Shown here: positions 3,475 through 20,585 of the stretch, in pieces
Layout: each line of letters begins with the position of its first letter
Numbering within the stretch: the first letter of the stretch is position 1
Assembly (NCBI GenBank): GCA_031396695.1
Contig: JANNLG010000171.1
Span: 6,053 to 70,052 of the forward strand
Source of the DNA: Deltaproteobacteria bacterium
GTDB taxonomy: Bacteria; Myxococcota_A; UBA9160; SZUA-336
Reading direction: 5' to 3'
Length of the DNA: 64,000 nt
Made by a program: the position numbers and the translations under genes
Notes under the pieces: generated by a model
Database searches by the model: none
What the model saw: the letters and a program-made list of their open reading frames with translations, nothing else
Told to the model about the DNA's origin: nothing

Positions 3475-4425
3475 ATGGCCAAACCCTTCCGCTTCGCGGT
3501 GCAGGTCTCGACGCTCCCCGCCGACGGCTGGATCGAGCGCGTGCGCTCGTACGAGCGACTCGGCTTCTCCACGGTCTTCTGCCCCGATCACTTCGGGCCG
3601 CAGTGGGATCCGACTGCGCTGCTCGCGGCGGCCGCCGCGGTCACGACACGACTCAATGTCGGGTCGCTGGTGTACGACGTCGACTACCGCCACCCCGTGA
3701 TCCACGCCAAGGGCGCCGCGACGATCCAGCTGCTCTCCGGCGGGCGGCACGAGTTCGGCATCGGCGCGGGTTGGATGCAGACCGACTACGACGAGGCGGG
3801 CATGCCTTACGACCGCCCAGGCCTGCGCATCGAGCGGCTCGACGAGGCGCTGCAGATCATCAAGAGCATGTGGGAGAACGAACGCACCACGTTCTCGGGC
3901 AAGCACTACAAGATCACCAACATCGCGAAGGCCGCCGAGCTGCCGGCCGGCGCGCGGCCCAAGATCCTGATCGGCGGTGGAGGACCGCGCGTGTTGCGGC
4001 TCGCGGGCCGGCACGCCGACATCGTCGGCATCAATCCGAGCCTGCCCGAGGGCAAGATCACGCGAGACAGTGCCGCCGATCTCGCGCCCGAGCGGCTCGA
4101 CGAGAAGCTGCGCCACGTGCGCGCGGGCGCGGAGGCCGCGGGCCGACGTTTCGACGAGATCGAGCTGAACTCGCTGACCTTCGTGGTGGCGATCACGGAT
4201 GATGCCTCGGGCCTGCGCGCGGGCCTGGCCGCGAACAGCGGAATGTCGGTCGAGCAGGTCGCGAACTGCCCGATCTTCCTGACCGGCTCCGCGGCGGAGA
4301 TCCGCGACGGGCTCGAGAAGCGGCGCGAGCGCTACGGGCTCTCGTACATCGTGATCCAGGGCCGCGATCCGGCCATGGTCGAGAAGTTCGCCGAGCTGAT
4401 CGTGGCGCCGCTGTCCGGCAAGTGA
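3475..4425 (+). CDS. LLM-class (luciferase-like) probable F420-dependent oxidoreductase
   Basis: ATG 3475 (MAKPFRFAVQVS...). Luciferase-like monooxygenase family pattern (FSTVFCPDHF, GGRHEFGIGAGW, PKILIGGGGPRVLRLAGRHADIVG). The upstream part of track ORF 3292.. overlaps ndh. Confidence 0.75.
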   Translation: MAKPFRFAVQVSTLPADGWIERVRSYERLGFSTVFCPDHFGPQWDPTALLAAAAAVTTRLNVGSLVYDVDYRHPVIHAKGAATIQLLSGGRHEFGIGAGWMQTDYDEAGMPYDRPGLRIERLDEALQIIKSMWENERTTFSGKHYKITNIAKAAELPAGARPKILIGGGGPRVLRLAGRHADIVGINPSLPEGKITRDSAADLAPERLDEKLRHVRAGAEAAGRRFDEIELNSLTFVVAITDDASGLRAGLAANSGMSVEQVANCPIFLTGSAAEIRDGLEKRRERYGLSYIVIQGRDPAMVEKFAELIVAPLSGK

Positions 4426-11605: not shown

Positions 11606-12043
11606 ATGAGAACCGCAATGACACGGCTCCTGTGTCGCTGCATGGGGATGTCGAGCCAGTGCGTCGCGGATCGGGTCCGCGAGCGCGGACTCGGCGACGT
11701 GGAGTCGATCGCCGCGAGCCTTGGCGCGGGTGGCTGCTGCGGAAGCTGTCGACCCGACCTCGAGGAGATCCTCGCCGACCTGCGCGGGGAGCCATTGCCC
11801 GAACCCGTGCGCCGCGCCAACCGCCTGCGCGGCGAGGCCGAGGCCTTCCGCCGCGTGGAAGCCGTGCTGTTCGGCAGCATCGTCGCGCGCCTGCCGCCGG
11901 GCACGGAGCTCGAGCTCGTTTCCGTATCCGGTTTGCGCGCGGAGCTGCACGTTGCGCACGGGGACTCACCGGAGCTGCGCACGCTGGTCGCCGAACGCCT
12001 GCAGAAGCTCGTCTGCGTCGAGCTCGAGGTGCAGTTCCGCTGA
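11606..12043 (+). CDS. (2Fe-2S)-binding BFD-like domain protein with C-terminal extension
   Basis: LLCRCMGMSSQCV...GAGGCCGSCRPDLEEIL is the BFD-like [2Fe-2S] four-Cys pattern. It is followed by a tail of about 80 aa. The start is ATG 11606 or ATG 11618. Confidence 0.7.
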   Translation: MRTAMTRLLCRCMGMSSQCVADRVRERGLGDVESIAASLGAGGCCGSCRPDLEEILADLRGEPLPEPVRRANRLRGEAEAFRRVEAVLFGSIVARLPPGTELELVSVSGLRAELHVAHGDSPELRTLVAERLQKLVCVELEVQFR

Positions 12044-12060: not shown

Positions 12061-12861
12061 ATGCGAGTCGAACGCATTCCGACGCTGCGCGACAACTACA
12101 CGTACCTGGTGATCGATCCGGCTTCGAACGAGGCGGCGGTGATCGACGCGCCGGAGGCCGCGCCGGTGATCGCGCGCGTCGCGAAGCTCGGGGTGCGCGT
12201 GACGAAGGTGATGTCGACGCACCACCACCTCGATCACAGCGGCGCGAATCCCGAGCTCGCCGCGCACTTCCGCGCGCCCGTGATCGGACACGCCTCCGAC
12301 GCCGCCCGCATTCCGGGCTTCACCACCGGCGTGGAGGAAGGCGAGCGCGTGCGCGTCGGCGCGCTCGAGGCCGACGTGCTGTTCATCCCGGCGCATACGC
12401 GCGGGCACGTCGCCTACGTGTTTCCCGGCGCCGTGTTCTGCGGTGACACGCTCTTCGCCGGCGGCTGCGGGCGGCTCTTCGAGGGCACCCCGCAGATGAT
12501 GCACGAGGCGCTGAACGTGAAGCTCGCGAAGCTCGCCGACGCGACGCTCGTCTACTGCGGGCACGAGTACACGGAGGCCAACCTGCGTTTCGCGCTCACG
12601 CTCGAGCCGGGCAACTCGGCGCTCGCCGCGCGCATCACGACGGTGAAGGCGCGCCGCGCGCACGCCGCGAGCGATTGGCACGACGCGACGGAGGCGGAGA
12701 TGACCGTGCCCTCGACGCTCGCCGACGAGCGCGCGACCAATCCGTTCATGCGTACGTCGGCGGCGGAGCTCGTCGCGAGCGTGCGCGCGCAGCTGCCCGG
12801 TACGTCGTCCGATCCCGTCAGCGTGCTCGGCGCGGTGCGCGCGCTGAAGGACAAGTTCTGA
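12061..12861 (+). CDS. gloB: hydroxyacylglutathione hydrolase (glyoxalase II)
   Basis: Full-length track ORF. The segments DNYTYLVID, the STHHHLDHSG metallo-beta-lactamase motif, GHEYT and NPFMR are typical of GloB. Confidence 0.9.
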   Translation: MRVERIPTLRDNYTYLVIDPASNEAAVIDAPEAAPVIARVAKLGVRVTKVMSTHHHLDHSGANPELAAHFRAPVIGHASDAARIPGFTTGVEEGERVRVGALEADVLFIPAHTRGHVAYVFPGAVFCGDTLFAGGCGRLFEGTPQMMHEALNVKLAKLADATLVYCGHEYTEANLRFALTLEPGNSALAARITTVKARRAHAASDWHDATEAEMTVPSTLADERATNPFMRTSAAELVASVRAQLPGTSSDPVSVLGAVRALKDKF

Positions 12862-13530: not shown

Positions 13531-13545
13531 TGACGATAACCGTCA
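13531..13545. promoter_or_regulatory. inverted repeat TGACG-N5-CGTCA (candidate enhancer-binding-protein site)
   Basis: Perfect 5+5 inverted repeat, TGACGATAACCGTCA. It lies about 120 bp upstream of the sigma-54-type promoter at 13654, within a non-coding gap. Confidence 0.3.
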
Positions 13546-13653
13546 CCGGACTGACGGATCTGGTCCACATCGGGCCCTGCAGCGAGGCCGCGACAGTGTC
13601 GCCAGGCTCGAATATCCGCGGACTTCGTCGCGTCTGGTGCGTATGGCATACGT

Positions 13654-13669
13654 TGGCACGCCTGATGCA
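13654..13669 (+). promoter_or_regulatory. sigma-54 (-24/-12) promoter candidate
   Basis: TGGCACGCCTGATGCA compared with the consensus TGGCACG-N4-TTGCW has correct GG/GC spacing and a single mismatch (ATGC for TTGC). It lies 37 nt upstream of ATG 13706. Confidence 0.5.
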
Positions 13670-13705
13670 AATCCTCAGGCTCGAAACAGAGGGGAGCATT
13701 TCGGC

Positions 13706-13930
13706 ATGGCACTGGTCGCGCACACGCTCAGGAATTTCGAGTCCGCGGAGCAGATCGCGGAGCCCGGCCACCCCGAGACGCTCACCCTGCTCGACCTTGT
13801 TTCTGCAATCGCGGACGAGGCCGAGACCGACGAAGAGGTCGTCGCCACGATCCAGCATCTGATCGAGACTGGAAAGGTCACCCTGGTCGGGAACTTCCGC
13901 TCGAACGACGTCGGCCGACGCAAGGACTGA
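13706..13930 (+). CDS. hypothetical small acidic protein (74 aa)
   Basis: ATG 13706 has GGGGAG 9 nt upstream. Product: MALVAHTLRNFESAEQIAEPGHPETLTLLDLVSAIADEAETDEEVVATIQHLIETGKVTLVGNFRSNDVGRRKD. Composition is non-shadow. No family recognised. Confidence 0.55.
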   Translation: MALVAHTLRNFESAEQIAEPGHPETLTLLDLVSAIADEAETDEEVVATIQHLIETGKVTLVGNFRSNDVGRRKD

Positions 13931-13943
13931 GCGCCGCTCAGAC

Positions 13944-15086
13944 CTACAGAGCCTTCGCCGCCTCTTCGAGCGCGACCACCACGTGATAGACGCTGGTCGC
14001 GTTCTGCGCGTCCGAGATCACGCGCCCGTCGCGCGCGAGCTGCTCGAACCAGCCGTGCGTCTTGGGATCGACGTGACGAGCGAAGCAGTAGCGCAAGCCG
14101 GCTTCCAGCTCGCGCCGCGCGATCGCGTCGCCCGTCGCCCGCGCGCGCGCGGCCAGCGCCTTGACGCGCTCGGTCTGCGGCCACAGTCGCTTGGTCACGG
14201 CGAGCGTCCGGCCCTCGGCGTCGATCTGGTCGAAGACTCCGCCGTCGGTGTCGACGCCCAAGCGGCGGCCGAACTCGAAGAGCCGATCGGACAGCGCGCG
14301 CGCCGCGTCGCTCGGCGCGAGCGACTGCAACCGATCGAGCAGCCAGACCCACTCGAAGTGATGCCCGGGCTCGACGATGCGCCCGGCATCGCCCGCGAGC
14401 GGCCGCCAGTGGGAGTCGAAGTGTTCGCCGAGCGCGCCCGTGCGCGCGTCGAGCCAGCGCGCGCCGAGCAGCTCCACGAGCGAGCGCGCGTCGCGCAGCG
14501 CGCCGCTGTCGGGCGCGACCTCGGCCAGCACCAGTAGCGCCTCGACCAAGTGCATGTGCGGGTTCTGTCGCCGCGGCCCCGCGAGCGGCTGCCAGTCCTC
14601 GCTCGCGGTCTCGAAGAAGCCACCCGAAACGGGATCGCGCAGCCGTTCGCGCAGGAGCTCGAGCGTCGCGCTCGCCAGCCGCAGGGACTCCGGCTCGCCG
14701 CTTGCCCGGTGGTGCTCGGCGAGCGCGAAGATCGCGAACGCATGCCCGTACAGATCCTTGCGTCGGTCGAGCGGCGCGCCCGCCTCGTCGGTGGTGGTGA
14801 ACCAACCGCCGAAGCGCGGGTCCCAGAAACGCGCGTGCAGGAACTCGAGTCCGTGCGCCACCGCGTTTCGCGCCCACGCGCCGGCGCCAAGTTCCGACGC
14901 GCGCGTGAACGCGAAGATCTGGCGCGCGTGGACCAGGAGTCGCTTGTGACCGTCGGGCAGCGGCGCCAGATCGGGTCCGAGCCGGTTCCAGTAGCCGCCG
15001 CGGTTGCGATCGAGACCGTGCCGTTCCCAGAGCGGCAGCAGCTCGTCGACCAGATGCGCGCGCAGCGTCAGGCGCGAGTGCTGCAT
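13944..15086 (-). CDS. AGE-family epimerase/isomerase (N-acylglucosamine 2-epimerase / mannose-6-P isomerase-like)
   Basis: ATG 15086 (MQHSRLTLRAHLVDELLPLWERHGLDRNRGGYW...). Shows the repeated (alpha/alpha)6-barrel pattern with KRLLVHARQIFAF, KDLYGHAFAIFALAE, NPHMHLVEALL, PGHHFEWVWLL and RLWPQTERVKA. Confidence 0.85.
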   Translation of the reverse strand: MQHSRLTLRAHLVDELLPLWERHGLDRNRGGYWNRLGPDLAPLPDGHKRLLVHARQIFAFTRASELGAGAWARNAVAHGLEFLHARFWDPRFGGWFTTTDEAGAPLDRRKDLYGHAFAIFALAEHHRASGEPESLRLASATLELLRERLRDPVSGGFFETASEDWQPLAGPRRQNPHMHLVEALLVLAEVAPDSGALRDARSLVELLGARWLDARTGALGEHFDSHWRPLAGDAGRIVEPGHHFEWVWLLDRLQSLAPSDAARALSDRLFEFGRRLGVDTDGGVFDQIDAEGRTLAVTKRLWPQTERVKALAARARATGDAIARRELEAGLRYCFARHVDPKTHGWFEQLARDGRVISDAQNATSVYHVVVALEEAAKAL

Positions 15087-15093
15087 CGCTCGC

Positions 15094-15435
15094 TCACGAC
15101 AGCGCGTCGGTGTAGGCCTCCGCGTTCCAACCGACCAGCAGCGTGTCGCCGACCACCAGCGCCGGCGCGCGCAGATTTCCGGTCGGCCCGAGGACGGCCT
15201 CGACGATCTCGTCGGGCGCTTTTCCGCCGGGCGTGAAGCTGCGCAGCGCTTTGCCTTTCGCCACGACAACGCGCCTCGCGGCCTTCACCAGCTTCGCGGC
15301 GTCGGCCTTGCCGAGCTTCTTGCTCGCAGAAACCGTCGCGACCGGCTCGATCTTCCTGGCGTCCAGAAACTTGGACGCTCGTTCGCAACTGGTTCAACCG
15401 TTGCGGTGGTAGTACCAGTCGATGCGCTTGGCCAT
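15094..15435 (-). CDS. ArsC/Spx/YffB-family protein with in-frame TGA at codon 14 (probable selenoprotein, U-x-x-C)
   Basis: ATG 15435 has GGAGG 9 nt upstream. The reading is MAKRIDWYYHRNG-[TGA 15396..15394]-TSCERASKFLDARKIEPV...AAKL, which runs in frame with no other stop into track ORF 15094..15288. The total is 113 codons, which is the family size. The TGA sits where the family has the first Cys of CxxC(R/K)KA..(F/W)L. A hairpin lies 15 nt downstream. Confidence 0.8.
15359..15378 (-). promoter_or_regulatory. SECIS-like stem-loop downstream of UGA
   Basis: The mRNA can form GCGUCCA-AGUUUC-UGGACGC, a perfect 7-bp stem with a 6-nt loop containing GU. It starts 15 nt after the UGA, so the loop falls about 22-28 nt downstream, within the range reported for bacterial SECIS elements. 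Confidence 0.6.
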
Positions 15436-15475
15436 GCGATCCACCCTCCGATTCGGAGATCGAGCTTAGCAAGCG

Positions 15476-15697
15476 TCAGGCGGGGACGGACTCCCCGCCC
15501 GCGAGACAGACGCTCGGGGCGCGCTGGCGGCGCTCGCCGTGGGTCTCGGCGAGCAGATCGTGCACCGTCTCGCGGCAGCCGCCGCAGCTCGAGCCCGCGC
15601 CGCACATCTCGGCGACCTGACAGGGCGTGCGAGCGCCCGCACGCGCGGCGTGCTGGATTTCGCGGTCGGTCACGGCGTGGCAGCTGCACACGATCAT
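15476..15697 (-). CDS. bfd: bacterioferritin-associated ferredoxin, (2Fe-2S)-binding
   Basis: ATG 15697. MIVCSCHAVTDREIQ...CQVAEMCGAGSSCGGCRETV is the canonical Bfd C-x-C...C-x2-C pattern. Product is 73 aa. Confidence 0.85.
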   Translation of the reverse strand: MIVCSCHAVTDREIQHAARAGARTPCQVAEMCGAGSSCGGCRETVHDLLAETHGERRQRAPSVCLAGGESVPA

Positions 15698-15718
15698 GAC
15701 CGACAGCCTACCTCGGAT

Positions 15719-15737
15719 GATAATGACAATCAATTAC
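15719..15737. promoter_or_regulatory. Fur-box-like operator
   Basis: GATAATGACAATCAATTAC matches 15 of 19 positions of the classical GATAATGATAATCATTATC. It lies in the AT-richest patch of the bfd/lemA divergent gap, 21 nt from the bfd start. Confidence 0.55.
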
Positions 15738-15776
15738 CAAGTTGCCGGCGGCGCATCTGGCGAATACCCTGGCGGC

Positions 15777-16367
15777 ATGAAAAACCCAAATCGTTCAATG
15801 GCTTGCGTTCTCGCCCTGCTGGCGTTGGCGGTCTCGGGCTGCGGCTACAACTCGATCCAGGGAGCCGACGAGAACGTCAAGGCCGCTTGGGCCGAGGTGG
15901 AGAACCAGTATCAGCGCCGCATGGACCTGATCCCGAATCTGGTCGCCACCGTGAAGGGTGCGGCGAACTTCGAGAAGGAGACGCTCGAAGCCGTGATCCA
16001 GGCGCGCGCCAGCGCGACCCAGGTGAAGATGGACGCGAGCGTGCTCGACGACCCGGAGGCGTTCAAGAAGCTGCAGGAGGCTCAGAGTTCGTTGTCGGGC
16101 GCGCTCTCGCGACTGTTGGTGGTTTCGGAGCGCTACCCGGAGCTGAAGGCGACCGCGGCGTTCAGAGACCTGCAAGCGCAGCTCGAGGGCACGGAGAATC
16201 GCATCACCGTCGCCCGCAAGCGTTACGTCGAGACGGTGGCCGAGTACAACAAGCTGGTGCGTTTCTTCCCGACCAACCTGACCGCGCGCTTCATCCTGGG
16301 CGTGGAGCCGCGGCCGACCTTCGAGGCCACGCCCGGCTCCGAGAAGCCGCCCGAGGTGAAATTCTGA
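15777..16367 (+). CDS. lemA: LemA family lipoprotein
   Basis: ATG 15777. Has the lipobox LALAVSGC. The segments GYNSIQGADENVKAAWAEVENQYQRRMDLIPNLV and RYPELKA...FRDLQAQLEGTENRI are typical of LemA. Confidence 0.9.
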   Translation: MKNPNRSMACVLALLALAVSGCGYNSIQGADENVKAAWAEVENQYQRRMDLIPNLVATVKGAANFEKETLEAVIQARASATQVKMDASVLDDPEAFKKLQEAQSSLSGALSRLLVVSERYPELKATAAFRDLQAQLEGTENRITVARKRYVETVAEYNKLVRFFPTNLTARFILGVEPRPTFEATPGSEKPPEVKF

Positions 16368-17125
16368 GCGCGAGCCCCGCGCGCGCCGCGCTGATCGTTC
16401 TCGCGCTCGTCGGTGTCGCGTTCGCTCGCGATGCGCGCGCGCTCGAGATTCCCGAGCTGCGCGCGCACGTGCTCGATCGCGCGGGTCTGTTGCCGACGCA
16501 GTCGGCGCAGTCGCTCGAGCGAACACTCAGCGACTTCGAGCGCTCGACCGGTCACCAGGTGGTGGTGCACGTCACGCCATCGCTCGAGGGGCTCGAGATC
16601 GAGGACTACTCGATCCAGACCGCCGAAGCCTGGAAGGTCGGCCAGCAGAGCCTCGACAACGGCGTGATCCTCACGGTCGCGCCGAACGAGCGACGCGTGC
16701 GGATCGAGGTCGGCTACGGGCTCGAGGGCGTGCTGCCCGACGCGCTCTCCGCGCGCATCGTGCGAGACGTGATCCTGCCCGAGTTCCGCGCGGGCCGGAT
16801 GGATCAGGGCGTGCTCGCGGGCACGCGCGCGATTCTCGGCGTGATCTCCGGCGAGGTCCTGCCGGTCCCCGCGCAAGGCGGTCGACCTGCGCCATCGAAG
16901 TGGATCGTGGGGCTCTGGATCGTGTTCATCGTCGTGATGCTCCTCTCGCGCGGCCTCTTCTTCGCGCCGCCGTTCGGTGGACCCGGCATGCGGCGCGGCC
17001 GGAGCTCGAGTGGAATGCCGCCGTTCGGCGGCGGTTTCGGGCGCGGTGGCGGGGGCTTCGGTGGCGGCGGATTCTCGGGTGGCGGCGGCGGCTTCGGCGG
17101 CGGCGGCGCGTCGGGACGCTGGTGA
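16364..17125 (+). CDS. TPM domain-containing protein (YgcG-like) with Gly-rich C-terminal tail; proposed CTG start
   Basis: Tail of track ORF 15539..17125. The signal peptide (L/M)SASPARAALIVLALVGVAFA begins at CTG 16364, which overlaps the lemA TGA, with GAGGTG 5 nt upstream. The TPM core is present (VLDRAGLL, GHQVVVHV, GVILTVAPNERRVRIEVGYGLEG), followed by a TM segment and a GGGFGGGG tail. Confidence 0.8.
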   Translation: MSASPARAALIVLALVGVAFARDARALEIPELRAHVLDRAGLLPTQSAQSLERTLSDFERSTGHQVVVHVTPSLEGLEIEDYSIQTAEAWKVGQQSLDNGVILTVAPNERRVRIEVGYGLEGVLPDALSARIVRDVILPEFRAGRMDQGVLAGTRAILGVISGEVLPVPAQGGRPAPSKWIVGLWIVFIVVMLLSRGLFFAPPFGGPGMRRGRSSSGMPPFGGGFGRGGGGFGGGGFSGGGGGFGGGGASGRW

Positions 17126-17748
17126 TGCGCGCTTCCGAGCTGCTCGACGAGCGCGGCCGCGCGGCGATCGCCGCGGCGGTGCAGGCGGCGGAACGCGCGA
17201 CCTCGGGTGAGATCGTGCCGGTGATCGTGGAACGCAGCGACGCCTACGCCGAGCCGCGCTTCGGCGCCGCAGCGCTGGTCGCCTTCGCATCGGGCGCGGT
17301 CGCGCTCGCGTTCGCACCGGGGCTCGCGCCCTGGCTCGTGCCGACACAGCTCGGTGTGTTCGCGGCCGGCGCGTGGCTGTTCGGCCGAGCCGCGCTGCTG
17401 CGCCGTCTGGTTCCCGAAGAAGTCGTGAGCCGGCGCGTCGCGCGCGCGGCCGCGCTCACTTTCCACGAAGCCGGGCTGGTCGAGACGCGCGAGCGGACCG
17501 GCATCCTGATCTACGTCTCGCTGCTCGAGCACCGCGTAGTCGTGCTCGCCGATCGCGGCATCCACGCGCGCGTCGAGCCGGGCACCTGGGACGAAGTCGT
17601 CGCGCGCATCGTCACCGGCATCCGCGAGCGCCGCGCCGAAGCCGGCCTCGCCGACGGCATCCGGCTGTGCGGAGAGATCCTGAGCGAGCGGTTCCCGATC
17701 CGCCCCGACGACCGCAACGAGCTACCCGACACACCGCGCGGCGGCTGA
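17125..17748 (+). CDS. TPM domain-containing protein (second, cytoplasm-facing type)
   Basis: ATG 17125 forms a TGATG overlap with the upstream stop. The segments AIAAAVQAAERATSGEIVPVIVERSD and TGILIYVSLLEHRVVVLADRGI match the DUF477/TPM pattern. This is the classic third member of a LemA-TPM-TPM operon. Confidence 0.8.
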   Translation: MRASELLDERGRAAIAAAVQAAERATSGEIVPVIVERSDAYAEPRFGAAALVAFASGAVALAFAPGLAPWLVPTQLGVFAAGAWLFGRAALLRRLVPEEVVSRRVARAAALTFHEAGLVETRERTGILIYVSLLEHRVVVLADRGIHARVEPGTWDEVVARIVTGIRERRAEAGLADGIRLCGEILSERFPIRPDDRNELPDTPRGG

Positions 17749-17774: not shown

Positions 17775-18230
17775 TCAGACCCTTTGCTTTTTCTGGCACC
17801 TCGGGCAGATCCCGTACAGGATGTGCCGGTGCTGGGTGAGCACGTAGCCGTGCTCGGCGGCGACCTTGCGCTGCTCTTCCTCGATCGTCTCGCGCTCGAA
17901 CTCGACGATCGCGCCGCAGACCTGACAGATCAGGTGGTCGTGGTGGTGGCCCTCGCGCTCGTAGAGCGTGACGCCGTCGCGGAAGTGATGCGCGCGAGCG
18001 ACGCCCGCCTCGCAGAACAGCTTCAGCGCGCGGTAGACGGTGGCGGCGCCCACGTCCGGGCTCGAGTGCAGGACGGCCTCGTACAGCTCTTCGCTGGTCA
18101 CGTGACCCTTCGCGTGCAGGAACGCGTCGAGGATCGCGTCGCGCTGCTTCGTCTGCTTCAGACCGTGGCGCGAGAGATGCTCCGACAGCTTCTCATGGGC
18201 GCGCCGGTCGGACTCGACCCCGGATGCCAT
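17775..18230 (-). CDS. fur: Fur family transcriptional regulator
   Basis: Full-length track ORF. Shows the winged helix (GLKQTKQRDAILDAF...TVYRALKLF), the HHHDHLIC metal site, and the CxxC...CxxC pairs (CQVC, CPRC). Confidence 0.9.
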   Translation of the reverse strand: MASGVESDRRAHEKLSEHLSRHGLKQTKQRDAILDAFLHAKGHVTSEELYEAVLHSSPDVGAATVYRALKLFCEAGVARAHHFRDGVTLYEREGHHHDHLICQVCGAIVEFERETIEEEQRKVAAEHGYVLTQHRHILYGICPRCQKKQRV

Positions 18231-18242
18231 CGTCGGGCCACG

Positions 18243-20585
18243 CTATCGGGGGGCCGAACGCCTGTCAACGCGAATGCCGAGCAAGCGCCGCATCAGCGCG
18301 CCGAGATCGGGGTCGGAGAACATGCCGAGTGTCTCGTAGACTCTCGCGAGGCGATCGCGCACGTCGCTCGAGCGCGGCGCGAGCGCGATCTCGCGCGCGC
18401 AGTCCGTCATCGCCGAGGCGTCGGTCCGGCGCACGACCTGGCGCAGCGCAAGCACCGAGAACGGCGCCATCGAGAGCTCCTCGATTCCCATGCCGATCAA
18501 GAGCGGCGCCACGACCGGATTGCCGCCGAGTTCCCCGCACAGCGAGCACGGGATGCCGGCCGCGCGCGCCGCATCGACGCTGCGCTGGATCTCGGACAGC
18601 ACACCGGGATGGAACGGATCGTAGATCCCGGCCACGCGCTCGTTCTCGCGGTCGGTGGCGAGCGTGTACTGCATCAGATCGTTGGTGCCGATCGAGAAGA
18701 AGTCGGAGCGCGCGGCCAGGTGCTGCGCGATCGCGACCGCGGCGGGCGTCTCGATCATGACACCGAGCGGTGGCATGGCCGCGCCGAGCTCCGCGCAGAC
18801 CGCCAGCAGGTGCTCGCGCGCCGCCTCGAGCTCGTCCACCGACGCGATCATCGGCAGCATGATGCGCAGGTTGCCGGTGCCGTTCGCGCGCACGATCGCG
18901 CGCAGCTGTGCGCGAAACAGCTCGGGCCGGTCGAGCAGGATGCGGATCGCGCGCCAGCCGAGCTGCGGGTTCGCCTCTTCGATCGACTCGCCGGACAGCG
19001 CCTTGTCGCCGCCCAGATCGAAGCAGCGGATCACCACCGGGTCGGGGGCGATCTGCGTCGCCACGCGCAGGTACGCGCGCTGCTGCTCGTCCTCTTCGGG
19101 CACGCCGCGCGAGCCGAGCGCGAACACCTCCGTGCGCAACAAGCCGATGCCTTCCGCGCCGTAGCGCTTCACCAGATCGACGTCGGAGAGTCCGCCGACG
19201 TTGGCCGAGAGGCGGATCTTGCGGCCGTCGCGCGTCTCGCTCGGCAGGCCGCGCAGCTCGTCGAGCCGTCCGCGCGTCTTGCGATAGCGCCCGGAGATCA
19301 CCGTGTACTCGGCTCGCTGTGCGCGCGTGGGCGCCGCGATCACCACACCCTCGAGCCCGTCGACGATCACCTCGTCTTCGGGTCGCAGCCGCGCCGCGAT
19401 GCGCGCCACGCCGGAGACGGCCGGGATCTCGAGCGAGCGCGCGAAGATCGCGGAGTGACTGGTCGGCCCGCCGTGCTCCGTCACCAGCCCCGCGATCTTC
19501 TCGGTTTCGAGCAGCACGAACTCGCTCGGCGCGATCGCCGACGCGACCACGATCACGCCGTTGCGCAGCGGCGGATTGTGCAGTCGCACGCCGAGCAGCT
19601 CGCCGACCGCGCGCTGCAACACGTCCTCGACGTCGGCGGCGCGCTCGCGCACGGTCGCGTCGGGCGTCGCGGCGAAAATCGCCGCGTAGCCCTGCATGGT
19701 CTCCACCAGCGCGCGCGCGCCGTTGCCGTGCAAATCGACGCCGCGGCGCAGCTTGGCGCGAAAGCCCTGGTCTTCGAGGATCATGATGTGGGTGGTGAAG
19801 ACGTCTGCGAGCTCCTCGCCGAAGCGCTCGCCGACGCTCCCGCGCAGGTCGTTCAGCTGGCGCACGGTTTCGCGCAACGCGCGCTGCACGGCGCGGAACT
19901 CCGCCGCAGGCGTGCGCGCCGGCTCGTAGTCGATCGCACCCAGATCGAGCCGCGGCGCGATCAGGTGCACACGTCCGCGCGCGATGCCCGGTGAATTGCC
20001 GTTGCCGCGCAGCACCGTGCCGCGCGCGAGCGGCTCGGGCGCGCTGGCGGCGAAGCGTCTACCCGGAGCGCTCTCGCGCAGCGCGCGATCGAGCAGCCGC
20101 GCGTTGAGCACGATTGAGCCCACCTGCGCCGCGATCATCTCGAGCAGCTCGAGCTGCTCGGGCGGGAACACGCGCACGCGCGCGGTGCGCGCGGTCAGCA
20201 CACCGACCGGCTCGCCGCGCACCAGCAGCGGCACCGCCACCAGCGAGCGGAAGCGCTGCTCGCCCGAGAACGACACGGTCTGCACGCGTGTGTCGAGTCG
20301 AACGTCCGGCACCGCGATCGTCTCGCGCTGCTGCAGCGCGCGGCCCGCGATGCCCTGGCCGAGCCGGATGCGCACGCGCCCGACGGCCTGCGGGTTCAGG
20401 CCGCGCGTCGCGCGCAGCACCAACGTCTCGCCGTCCTCTTCGAGCACGTAGATCGAGCACGCCGAGGCGTGCATCCAGCGCGCGACCAGACGCACGACGT
20501 TTTCGAGCGTCTCCGCGAGGTCGTGACTGCGCGTGAGCAGCCGGCCGACGTCGCGCAGAAAGTTCGCGGATGCGCCTCGAGGCAT
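18243..20585 (-). CDS. ptsP: phosphoenolpyruvate-protein phosphotransferase with N-terminal GAF domain (EI-Ntr type)
   Basis: Full-length 780-aa ORF. An N-terminal GAF region is followed by EI motifs (GGPTSHSAIFARSLEIPAV, FFSIGTNDLMQY, CGE). Confidence 0.9.
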   Translation of the reverse strand: MPRGASANFLRDVGRLLTRSHDLAETLENVVRLVARWMHASACSIYVLEEDGETLVLRATRGLNPQAVGRVRIRLGQGIAGRALQQRETIAVPDVRLDTRVQTVSFSGEQRFRSLVAVPLLVRGEPVGVLTARTARVRVFPPEQLELLEMIAAQVGSIVLNARLLDRALRESAPGRRFAASAPEPLARGTVLRGNGNSPGIARGRVHLIAPRLDLGAIDYEPARTPAAEFRAVQRALRETVRQLNDLRGSVGERFGEELADVFTTHIMILEDQGFRAKLRRGVDLHGNGARALVETMQGYAAIFAATPDATVRERAADVEDVLQRAVGELLGVRLHNPPLRNGVIVVASAIAPSEFVLLETEKIAGLVTEHGGPTSHSAIFARSLEIPAVSGVARIAARLRPEDEVIVDGLEGVVIAAPTRAQRAEYTVISGRYRKTRGRLDELRGLPSETRDGRKIRLSANVGGLSDVDLVKRYGAEGIGLLRTEVFALGSRGVPEEDEQQRAYLRVATQIAPDPVVIRCFDLGGDKALSGESIEEANPQLGWRAIRILLDRPELFRAQLRAIVRANGTGNLRIMLPMIASVDELEAAREHLLAVCAELGAAMPPLGVMIETPAAVAIAQHLAARSDFFSIGTNDLMQYTLATDRENERVAGIYDPFHPGVLSEIQRSVDAARAAGIPCSLCGELGGNPVVAPLLIGMGIEELSMAPFSVLALRQVVRRTDASAMTDCAREIALAPRSSDVRDRLARVYETLGMFSDPDLGALMRRLLGIRVDRRSAPR

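Follow-up and report, generated by a model that had tools for sequence, protein, structure and literature searches.

Does iron control the genes on either side of a short, AT-rich gap in the genome of an uncultured Myxococcota bacterium? The gap lies in a 64-kb stretch of contig JANNLG010000171.1 (hereafter the window, meaning the whole stretch of DNA that was analysed; overall G+C, 71%), where it spans 79 bp (15698..15776) between a bfd-like ferredoxin gene that starts at 15697 on the minus strand and a divergent lemA gene that starts at 15777. The original prediction placed a box for the iron regulator Fur in this gap, 21 nt from the bfd start codon, and proposed that iron status would control bfd together with the genes behind it, which encode a selenocysteine (Sec)-containing ArsC-like protein and an AGE-family epimerase, and perhaps the divergent lemA operon as well. 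When recounted, the gap and its coordinates, a 15/19 match to the classical Fur box, the distance to the bfd start and the spacings of 40 nt (bfd to selenoprotein gene) and 7 nt (selenoprotein gene to AGE gene) all proved correct. The box patch also has, as had been claimed, the lowest G+C within 14500..17000 (0.55 to 0.56 in 80-nt windows, compared with 0.71 overall). On the basis of its conservation footprint, its score with a published matrix, the recurrence of such boxes ahead of distant Myxococcota bfd genes and the presence of a Fur-type regulator nearby, a 20-bp block in the gap (15718..15737) is very probably the Fur operator of the bfd-led operon, as had been proposed.

The Fur-like block and its conservation

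How closely does the block resemble known Fur sites, and how rare is such a match? The elements that we distinguish within it, or overlapping its edge, are as follows:

15718..15737: putative Fur operator, the conserved block of 20 bp TGATAATGACAATCAATTAC
15718..15732: core 7-1-7 inverted repeat TGATAAT-G-ACAATCA (TGATAATGACAATCA), 12/14 to TGATAATnATTATCA
15719..15737, plus strand: 19-mer of the original prediction GATAATGACAATCAATTAC, 15/19 to the classical Fur box GATAATGATAATCATTATC
15717..15733: 17-mer with a score of 18.07 bits in the dFUR matrix of published delta-proteobacterial sites
15724..15738: second, weaker 7-1-7 repeat TGACAATCAATTACC, offset by 6 bp, 9/14 and 8.3 bits

The core repeat was the sole match in the window to TGATAATnATTATCA at three mismatches or fewer, and 3 of 100 dinucleotide shuffles yielded any such match; the best unrelated 19-mer elsewhere in the window matched the classical box at 12/19. 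Given the base composition of the window, chance would supply about 0.0013 sites of at least 15/19 and about 0.0018 sites of the 7-1-7 type per window, or about 0.2 to 0.3 such sites per 10-Mb genome. Even if the local G+C were 35%, the per-position chance probability would be about 9e-6 to 1e-5. The dFUR weight matrix, which we built from 56 published Fur sites of Geobacter, Desulfuromonas, and Desulfovibrio (PMC545781, Table 3), placed the site beside the median of its own training set (18.07 versus 18.17 bits), and the next independent match in the window scored 6.0 bits. No other Fur-like site in the window exceeded 6 bits or 11/14, so that autoregulation of fur is not indicated.

Is the block kept in relatives of this genome? 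Genome and metagenome scans with the bfd-like protein, plus context look-ups of selenoprotein homologs, brought the number of orthologous lemA/bfd gaps to seven (the window, L002, L003, L029, L030, L069, and L074), with bfd identities to the window of 77 to 86% in the four loci found with bfd. The pattern TGAkAATGAmwwTCAAyTrC was kept in all seven. Invariant columns made up 14 of the 20 in the box compared with 6 of the 89 in the remaining gap (Fisher p = 6e-9), and among the five closest sequences (alignment A1) 18 of 20 box columns were invariant. Substitutions were confined to interior positions, the TGA...TCA ends being unchanged in 7/7, and two orthologs drifted toward the delta-proteobacterial consensus (TGAAAAT in L003, ACTTTCA in L069).

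What becomes of the box where bfd is missing? A sister lineage (L070 and L071) keeps the ptsP-fur-TPM-TPM-lemA / ArsC(Sec)-AGE synteny without bfd, its selenoprotein being 72% identical, and we found no box anywhere in that locus (in L070, neither bfd nor the box is present at 3878..4000); the top dFUR score over the whole locus was -0.8. Selenoprotein homologs in unrelated contexts without bfd (L072, L073, and L075) likewise had no box. The box thus tracks bfd and neither lemA nor the selenoprotein/AGE pair. Judged by this distribution, bfd and its predicted operator are gained or lost as one module. Where the module is present, the order bfd-ArsC(Sec)-AGE is kept in L002, L029, L069, and L074, and in L003 and L030 as far as their short contigs reach.

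Boxes of this type are also found well beyond the close relatives. Distant Myxococcota bfd genes with other neighbours have Fur-like boxes 31 to 52 nt upstream:

L006 and L068, upstream of bfd: TGATAATGAAAATGGTTGTCA
L025 and L061, upstream of bfd: TGATATTGAAATTCACTATCA
L027, upstream of bfd: TGAAAACTACTTTCA
L044, ahead of bfd-bfr: TGATAATGAGTCTCA

The boxes of L006, L025, L027, and L044 scored 13.8 to 20.6 bits with the dFUR matrix. In the Anaeromyxobacteraceae loci L004 and L005, bfd lies within a fur-feoB-(FeoA/DtxR-like)-bfd-bfr cluster whose sole strong site, TGATAATCGTTATCA (13/14), stands at the cluster start and belongs to a near-perfect double Fur box, TGATA(C/G)TGATAATCGTTATCA (L004 1463..1483, L005 1462..1482). 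Matches of at least 11/14 in these distant loci were confined to those box positions. Adjacency of bfd and bfr was seen in the more distant relatives L004, L005, L007, and L044. The original prediction had left room for a Fur motif in this lineage that differs from the classical box, a concern that is answered by the Anaeromyxobacteraceae site and by the dFUR score at the training median. In M. xanthus, FurA (MXAN_3702) is the master iron regulator (PMC11388931) and Fur boxes have been predicted with gamma-proteobacterial matrices (PMC9548883); in E. coli, bfd is Fur-repressed (PMC4676285).

Other bfd loci that we retrieved carry different motifs. Those of actinobacteria, Rhodococcus included (L008-L024, L046, L049-L059), have IdeR-like TAAGGTTTGGnnAACCTAA plus the TTGTGACTACGCTCACAA palindrome upstream, and another metagenomic group (L036-L041, L045, L048) has GTTAAGGCGyCCTAAC immediately before bfd. 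It seems that bfd is placed under whichever iron repressor its lineage uses.

The putative bfd promoter and the Fur-type regulator

How might a repressor bound at the block act on bfd? The putative promoter elements and the genes of the operon that they would serve are given here:

15728..15733, minus strand: inferred bfd -35, TTGATT, inside the box; read from the sequence and conserved as TTGAtt/TTGAAA/TTGATA
15705..15710, minus strand: inferred bfd -10, TAGGCT; spacing 17 nt to the -35, 7 nt to the ATG
15476..15697, minus strand: bfd-like [2Fe-2S] ferredoxin gene, 73 aa; Pfam Fer2_BFD (PF04324), 1.8e-14
15094..15435, minus strand: ArsC-family selenoprotein gene (UxxC); NF041106 ArsC_rel_Se_1, 112.4 bits against a cutoff of 85; in-frame UGA at 15394..15396
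13944..15086, minus strand: AGE-superfamily (GlcNAc 2-epimerase-like) gene, the final gene of the operon; Pfam PF07221 GlcNAc_2-epim, 3.9e-71

Outside the box only six columns are invariant, and they include the T, A, and final T of the -10-like hexamer; the would-be Shine-Dalgarno (SD) purines ahead of bfd are not conserved. In L069, a 17-nt insertion parts the hexamer from the bfd start, which is a TTG there and has gained an SD-like GGGAAGG ahead of it; a -10 would be expected to behave in this way, and a ribosome-binding site would not. We infer from this layout that the box covers the -35 and the spacer of the bfd promoter, at about -21 to -40 from the start codon, a standard repressing position. 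Half of the conserved block (10 bp) would then be promoter spacer, which sigma-70 promoters need not conserve. A scan with the sigma-70 consensus found no minus-strand promoter. An upstream bfd start at TTG 15733 (an 85-aa open reading frame) was rejected because the Fer2_BFD model begins at residue 2 of the protein read from ATG 15697 and because homologs begin MIVCSCHA.

Both divergent genes have a conserved TAnnnT 6 to 7 nt before the start codon and no conserved SD sequence in the seven orthologous loci. This arrangement suggests back-to-back promoters from which bfd and lemA would be transcribed without a leader, as has been proposed for other genes of myxobacteria (PMC12754779). From bfd to the end of the AGE gene we found neither a minus-strand terminator nor a minus-strand promoter, and since the gene order is also conserved, the bfd, selenoprotein, and AGE genes are likely co-transcribed.

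Is a suitable regulator at hand? The candidate lies about 2 kb from the gap:

17775..18230, minus strand: fur, the candidate regulator; Pfam FUR, 5.1e-34

A PDB search with this protein returned genuine Fur structures as top matches (Campylobacter jejuni 4ETS and 6D57, 7e-30), with PerR at 1e-22 and Zur at 1e-8 or worse; the matches 8J6W and 2W57 are labelled only as ferric uptake regulation protein. Its top NCBIfam matches were Fur equivalogs, below their cutoffs. The protein has an HHHDH motif, two CxxC pairs, an Arg in TVYRAL, and Glu at both positions of the PerR Asp ligands. PMC12754779 tells Fur from PerR by such features (recognition-helix Arg versus Asn, Asp ligands), and work that it cites is reported to show that PerR, once this Asn is replaced by Arg, recognizes the Fur box instead of the Per box. 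Our conclusions on the regulator rest mainly on the PDB search; the reference sequences of Fur, PerR, and Zur (E. coli and B. subtilis) to which the protein was compared may contain errors. By these features, the predicted regulator is Fur-type, not PerR-type.

A simple scheme can be drawn from these elements. In iron-replete cells, Fur carrying Fe2+ (most likely the protein made from 17775..18230) would bind TGATAAT-G-ACAATCA, and it may also occupy the second, overlapping repeat at its 6-bp offset (15724..15738). Bound over the -35 and spacer, Fur would exclude RNA polymerase from the promoter. Under iron limitation it would leave the DNA, allowing joint transcription of bfd, the ArsC-family selenoprotein gene, and the AGE gene. 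Fe-Fur would thus act probably as the repressor of all three genes.

Several points weigh against this assignment. In the core repeat, the right half-site ACAATCA agrees at only 5/7 positions, and the second, overlapping repeat reaches no more than 9/14. The matrix score would not decide the matter by itself, as a score of 15.8 bits with the dFUR matrix was also seen in 1 of 50 mononucleotide shuffles of the window. The seven orthologs are rather closely related, and shared ancestry may explain part of the conservation, though the remaining gap is heavily diverged. The promoter elements are putative, and the sole sigma-70-like prediction made by a tool points the opposite way (ATGACC-17-GATAAT). 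The window holds no bfr partner for the bfd-like gene, whose role in iron metabolism is assumed from its domain, and further Fur paralogs may be encoded elsewhere in the genome, beyond the 64-kb view. Support for the operator comes from sequence comparison throughout.

Alternative readings of the block

Could one box serve both divergent operons? If so, it would repress lemA-TPM-TPM as well and place that operon, too, under iron control. The elements on the lemA side are as follows:

15777..16367, plus strand: lemA (lipoprotein), leading the divergent lemA-TPM-TPM operon; Pfam LemA, 3.9e-55
about 16379..17125 and 17125..17748: two TPM-domain genes after lemA; TPM_phosphatase, 4.5e-39 and 9.9e-9
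15742..15747, plus strand: inferred lemA -35, TTGCCG, 4 nt beyond the box; TTGCC invariant in the five-sequence alignment
15765..15770, plus strand: inferred lemA -10, TACCCT, 6 nt before the ATG

The short distance between the box and the inferred lemA -35 speaks for sharing, as Fur can spread along AT-rich DNA, and the box would cover the lemA promoter outright if the GATAAT -10 predicted by the tool is real. In E. coli, a single Fur site serves the bidirectional fepA-fes promoter. However, no part of the better-conserved candidate lemA promoter, TTGCCG-16/17 nt-TAnnnT-6/7 nt-ATG, falls within the box. A TAnnnT hexamer precedes the lemA ATG by 6 to 7 nt in 7/7 loci, the spacing from -35 to -10 is 16 to 17 nt, and the box would then sit upstream of the -35, at about -40 to -59. 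In the sister lineage that lacks bfd, the box is gone, yet lemA and its -10-like element (TAACCT-6 nt-ATG in L070) are kept. We know of no link of LemA or TPM proteins to iron. Sharing of the operator is therefore possible but unsupported, and we consider it unlikely; the suggestion that lemA-TPM-TPM might be controlled from this box finds no support in the position of the inferred promoter or in the box-less sister lineage.

Two further candidates on the lemA side were set aside. The plus-strand promoter prediction itself, ATGACC-17-GATAAT with its -10 at 15719..15724, is kept only as a minority reading because its -35, ATGACC, is not conserved. A lemA start inside the box (ATGACAATC..., 'MTINY...'), as in one public call of a 214-aa LemA (L001), was rejected. 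The frame of this extension is open in 7/7 loci. Against it, the reading frame of the conserved TACCCT is not the same in the window as in L030, third-position G+C is about 55% by our own count compared with 85% in the lemA frame and 82 to 94% in other called genes, and MKNPNRS...LAVSGC is already a normal lipoprotein signal.

Might the block instead be core promoter DNA alone, that is, a -35, an UP-like element, or the lemA -10, with no role for Fur and a likeness to its box that is a by-product of AT-richness? The block does hold both a plausible bfd -35 (TTGATT) and the GATAAT -10 of the only tool prediction, which faces lemA, and in high-GC genomes AT-rich promoter patches mimic AT-rich operators more often than bulk sequence does. 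Yet conservation covers 20 bp, including the 10 bp of promoter spacer, and what stays invariant is the pair of palindromic ends, TGA...TCA, that is typical of Fur sites. The -35 partner of GATAAT is not conserved, lemA keeps its TAnnnT-6 nt-ATG in the lineage without the box, and similar 7-1-7 boxes occur at varied distances (31 to 52 nt) upstream of distant bfd genes and upstream of fur-feoB. These data make a promoter-only origin of the block highly improbable.

We judge it just as improbable that the block is an operator, with Fur not its ligand. Here the site would be occupied by a Fur-family paralog of PerR, Zur, Mur, or Nur type that senses peroxide or a different metal, or by an unrelated binder of AT-rich boxes, and the redox-type cargo of the operon would be under oxidative-stress rather than iron control. 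Per and Fur boxes differ at one position per half-site and the site matches the Per box at 10/14; the operon encodes a redox selenoprotein of the UxxC (thioredoxin-fold) type; some Myxococcota possess PerR (PMC12754779); and paralogs may lie outside the window. The fit to other consensus motifs argues otherwise. Across all seven orthologs, the block matched Fur at 11 to 12/14, PerR at 9 to 10/14, Zur at 8 to 9/14, FNR at 6 to 8/10, and CRP at 5 to 7/10, and the PerR, Zur, FNR, and CRP motifs were rejected because each fits worse than Fur in every ortholog. The discriminator positions of the repeat, G at position 2 (G15719) and C at position 14 (C15731), are Fur-type and invariant in the seven orthologs. 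Fuangthong and Helmann are said to have described, in 2003, the role of positions 2 and 14 in telling Fur boxes apart. The same role is credited to Caux-Thang 2015 where PMC12754779 cites that work. In addition, the local protein has Arg in place of Asn and Glu in place of the two Asp ligands of PerR, and the same type of box precedes the fur-feoB-bfd-bfr iron clusters of Anaeromyxobacteraceae.

That the match arose by chance and has no function, a thought that one site in one window examined might invite, is effectively refuted by conservation, as the block is kept in seven orthologs, boxes recur upstream of distant bfd genes, and only about 0.001 to 0.002 sites are expected per window.

The operon, its neighbourhood and known systems

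What would a Fur operator at 15718..15737 bring under iron control? Family searches bore out the proposed gene identities (bfd-like, LemA, TPM, AGE, ArsC-family, and Fur). The Fer2_BFD match spans residues 2 to 51 of the bfd-like protein, which has the four Cys ligands (Cys4, Cys6, Cys38, and Cys41; CxC...CxxC) and scores 23.6 bits against the NCBIfam Bfd equivalog NF007803, below the cutoff of 75. One short public contig encodes an exact copy, and the nearest genomes, which are uncultured Myxococcota metagenome-assembled genomes, encode proteins 79 to 80% identical.

The second gene, 15094..15435, fits the ArsC-family (seleno)protein model NF041106 by its score, its conserved UGA, and an adjacent hairpin, and Sec insertion is predicted. 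The in-frame UGA lies within a U-T-S-C motif and the TGA is kept in seven homologs; in databases, most homologs carry a shortened annotation that begins only past the UGA. The family of ArsC-like selenoproteins was already known (PMC1088965). The hairpin, which resembles a selenocysteine insertion sequence (SECIS) element, is placed as follows:

15359..15378, minus strand: SECIS-like hairpin GCGUCCA-AGUUUC-UGGACGC, 18 nt after the UGA

Its 7-bp stem is invariant in 7/7 TGA-containing homologs (GCGUCCA-AGUUYC-UGGACGC) and is missing in L072, the Cys homolog. Folding gave a z-score of -2.3, and the stem never varies, so that it has no covariation support. By eye, we also saw a small hairpin, CUCCG-AAU-CGGAG, in the bfd/selenoprotein spacer (15436..15475, minus strand), where part of it coincides with GGAGG, the ribosome-binding site that serves the selenoprotein gene.

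The link among iron, selenium, and redox functions that had been proposed for this locus stands in part: in this lineage, a predicted Fur-controlled bfd module heads the selenoprotein/AGE pair, but no box is found where ArsC(Sec)-AGE lacks bfd. If the operator is functional, the ArsC-family selenoprotein and the AGE-fold protein would be induced by iron limitation, which hints that they act under iron or redox stress and indicates a condition under which to look for their function. A more far-reaching picture, less likely than not, can be offered tentatively. In it, a Fur-controlled bfd-like gene was inserted ahead of an ArsC-family UxxC selenoprotein/AGE-fold pair in one uncultured Myxococcota lineage and made selenoprotein synthesis iron responsive; the Bfd-like protein partners the selenoprotein (e.g., as a redox partner) and not bacterioferritin; and both divergent mRNAs are leaderless, made from back-to-back promoters that share an 8-bp inter-promoter spacer.

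Elsewhere in the window, no bfr, feoB, or FeoA/DtxR-like gene was found, and there is thus no second iron locus inside the window for comparison. A second Fer2_BFD-domain protein (145 aa, 4.5e-11) is encoded at 11606..12043 on the plus strand, just upstream of a glyoxalase II-like gene (12061..12861), and no Fur-like site was found near it. The gene beside fur is the following:

18243..20585, minus strand: ptsP, a gene neighbour directly upstream of fur

On the same strand, fur lies 12 nt downstream of this GAF-domain ptsP (EI-Ntr-like), and the pairing is kept in L069, L070, and L074. A ptsP-fur operon joining regulators of the nitrogen phosphotransferase system and of iron is possible; no Fur box was found upstream of ptsP-fur. 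A perfect palindrome, TGACGATAACCGTCA (13531..13545), which is intergenic and ahead of a small conserved open reading frame without a family match (13637..13930), was dropped because it was absent from every related locus fetched. An Rfam scan of the whole window gave zero matches.

We regard the locus as a well-supported predicted member of a Fur regulon in an uncultured, very GC-rich Myxococcota lineage. The current understanding of Fur is unchanged by it. The classical Fur motif appears applicable in this lineage, which aids regulon reconstruction in such metagenome-assembled genomes.

How does the site compare with known systems? With the classical E. coli Fur box (GATAATGATAATCATTATC, core TGATAATnATTATCA) it shares 15/19 and 12/14 positions, the TGA...TCA ends, a putative overlap with the promoter of an iron-homeostasis gene, and a gene for a Fur-type repressor nearby, whereas its right half-site is degenerate (ACAATCA) and it is a predicted site in an uncultured Myxococcota host of 71% G+C. 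Compared with the dFUR box WTGAAAATnATTTTCAW (Rodionov et al. 2004, PMC545781), it scores at the median of published sites, and two orthologs (L003 and L069) have moved closer to the consensus TGAAAAT/ATTTTCA, but the window site itself is nearer to the gamma-proteobacterial/Bacillus TGATAAT than to TGAAAAT. The 6-bp-offset double arrangement described for Desulfovibrio Fur sites (PMC545781) resembles the possible second box of the window. The E. coli Fur profile, which failed in Geobacter and Desulfovibrio (PMC545781), works at the window site.

The nearest counterpart in gene content is E. coli bfd-bfr (PMC4676285), likewise a small Fer2_BFD gene with a Fur site (in the window, a predicted one) at its promoter, and in Anaeromyxobacteraceae bfd is also beside bfr. 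In the window, by contrast, bfd is followed by the ArsC-family selenoprotein and AGE-fold genes, with no bfr in 64 kb and a score below the NCBIfam Bfd cutoff. The PerR box (TTATAATnATTATAA) is, like the window site, an AT-rich 7-1-7 repeat recognized by a Fur-family protein, often before redox-defence genes; it differs in having T/A rather than G/C at positions 2 and 14, and the recognition helix of the local regulator contains Arg where PerR has Asn. The IdeR/DtxR iron boxes of actinobacterial bfd genes (Rhodococcus TAAGGTTTGGnnAACCTAA) also place bfd under the iron repressor of the lineage, through a repressor family and a motif that are unrelated to Fur. Set among these systems, a Fur box before bfd is a textbook arrangement, and what is unusual here is only that the operon encodes a selenoprotein.

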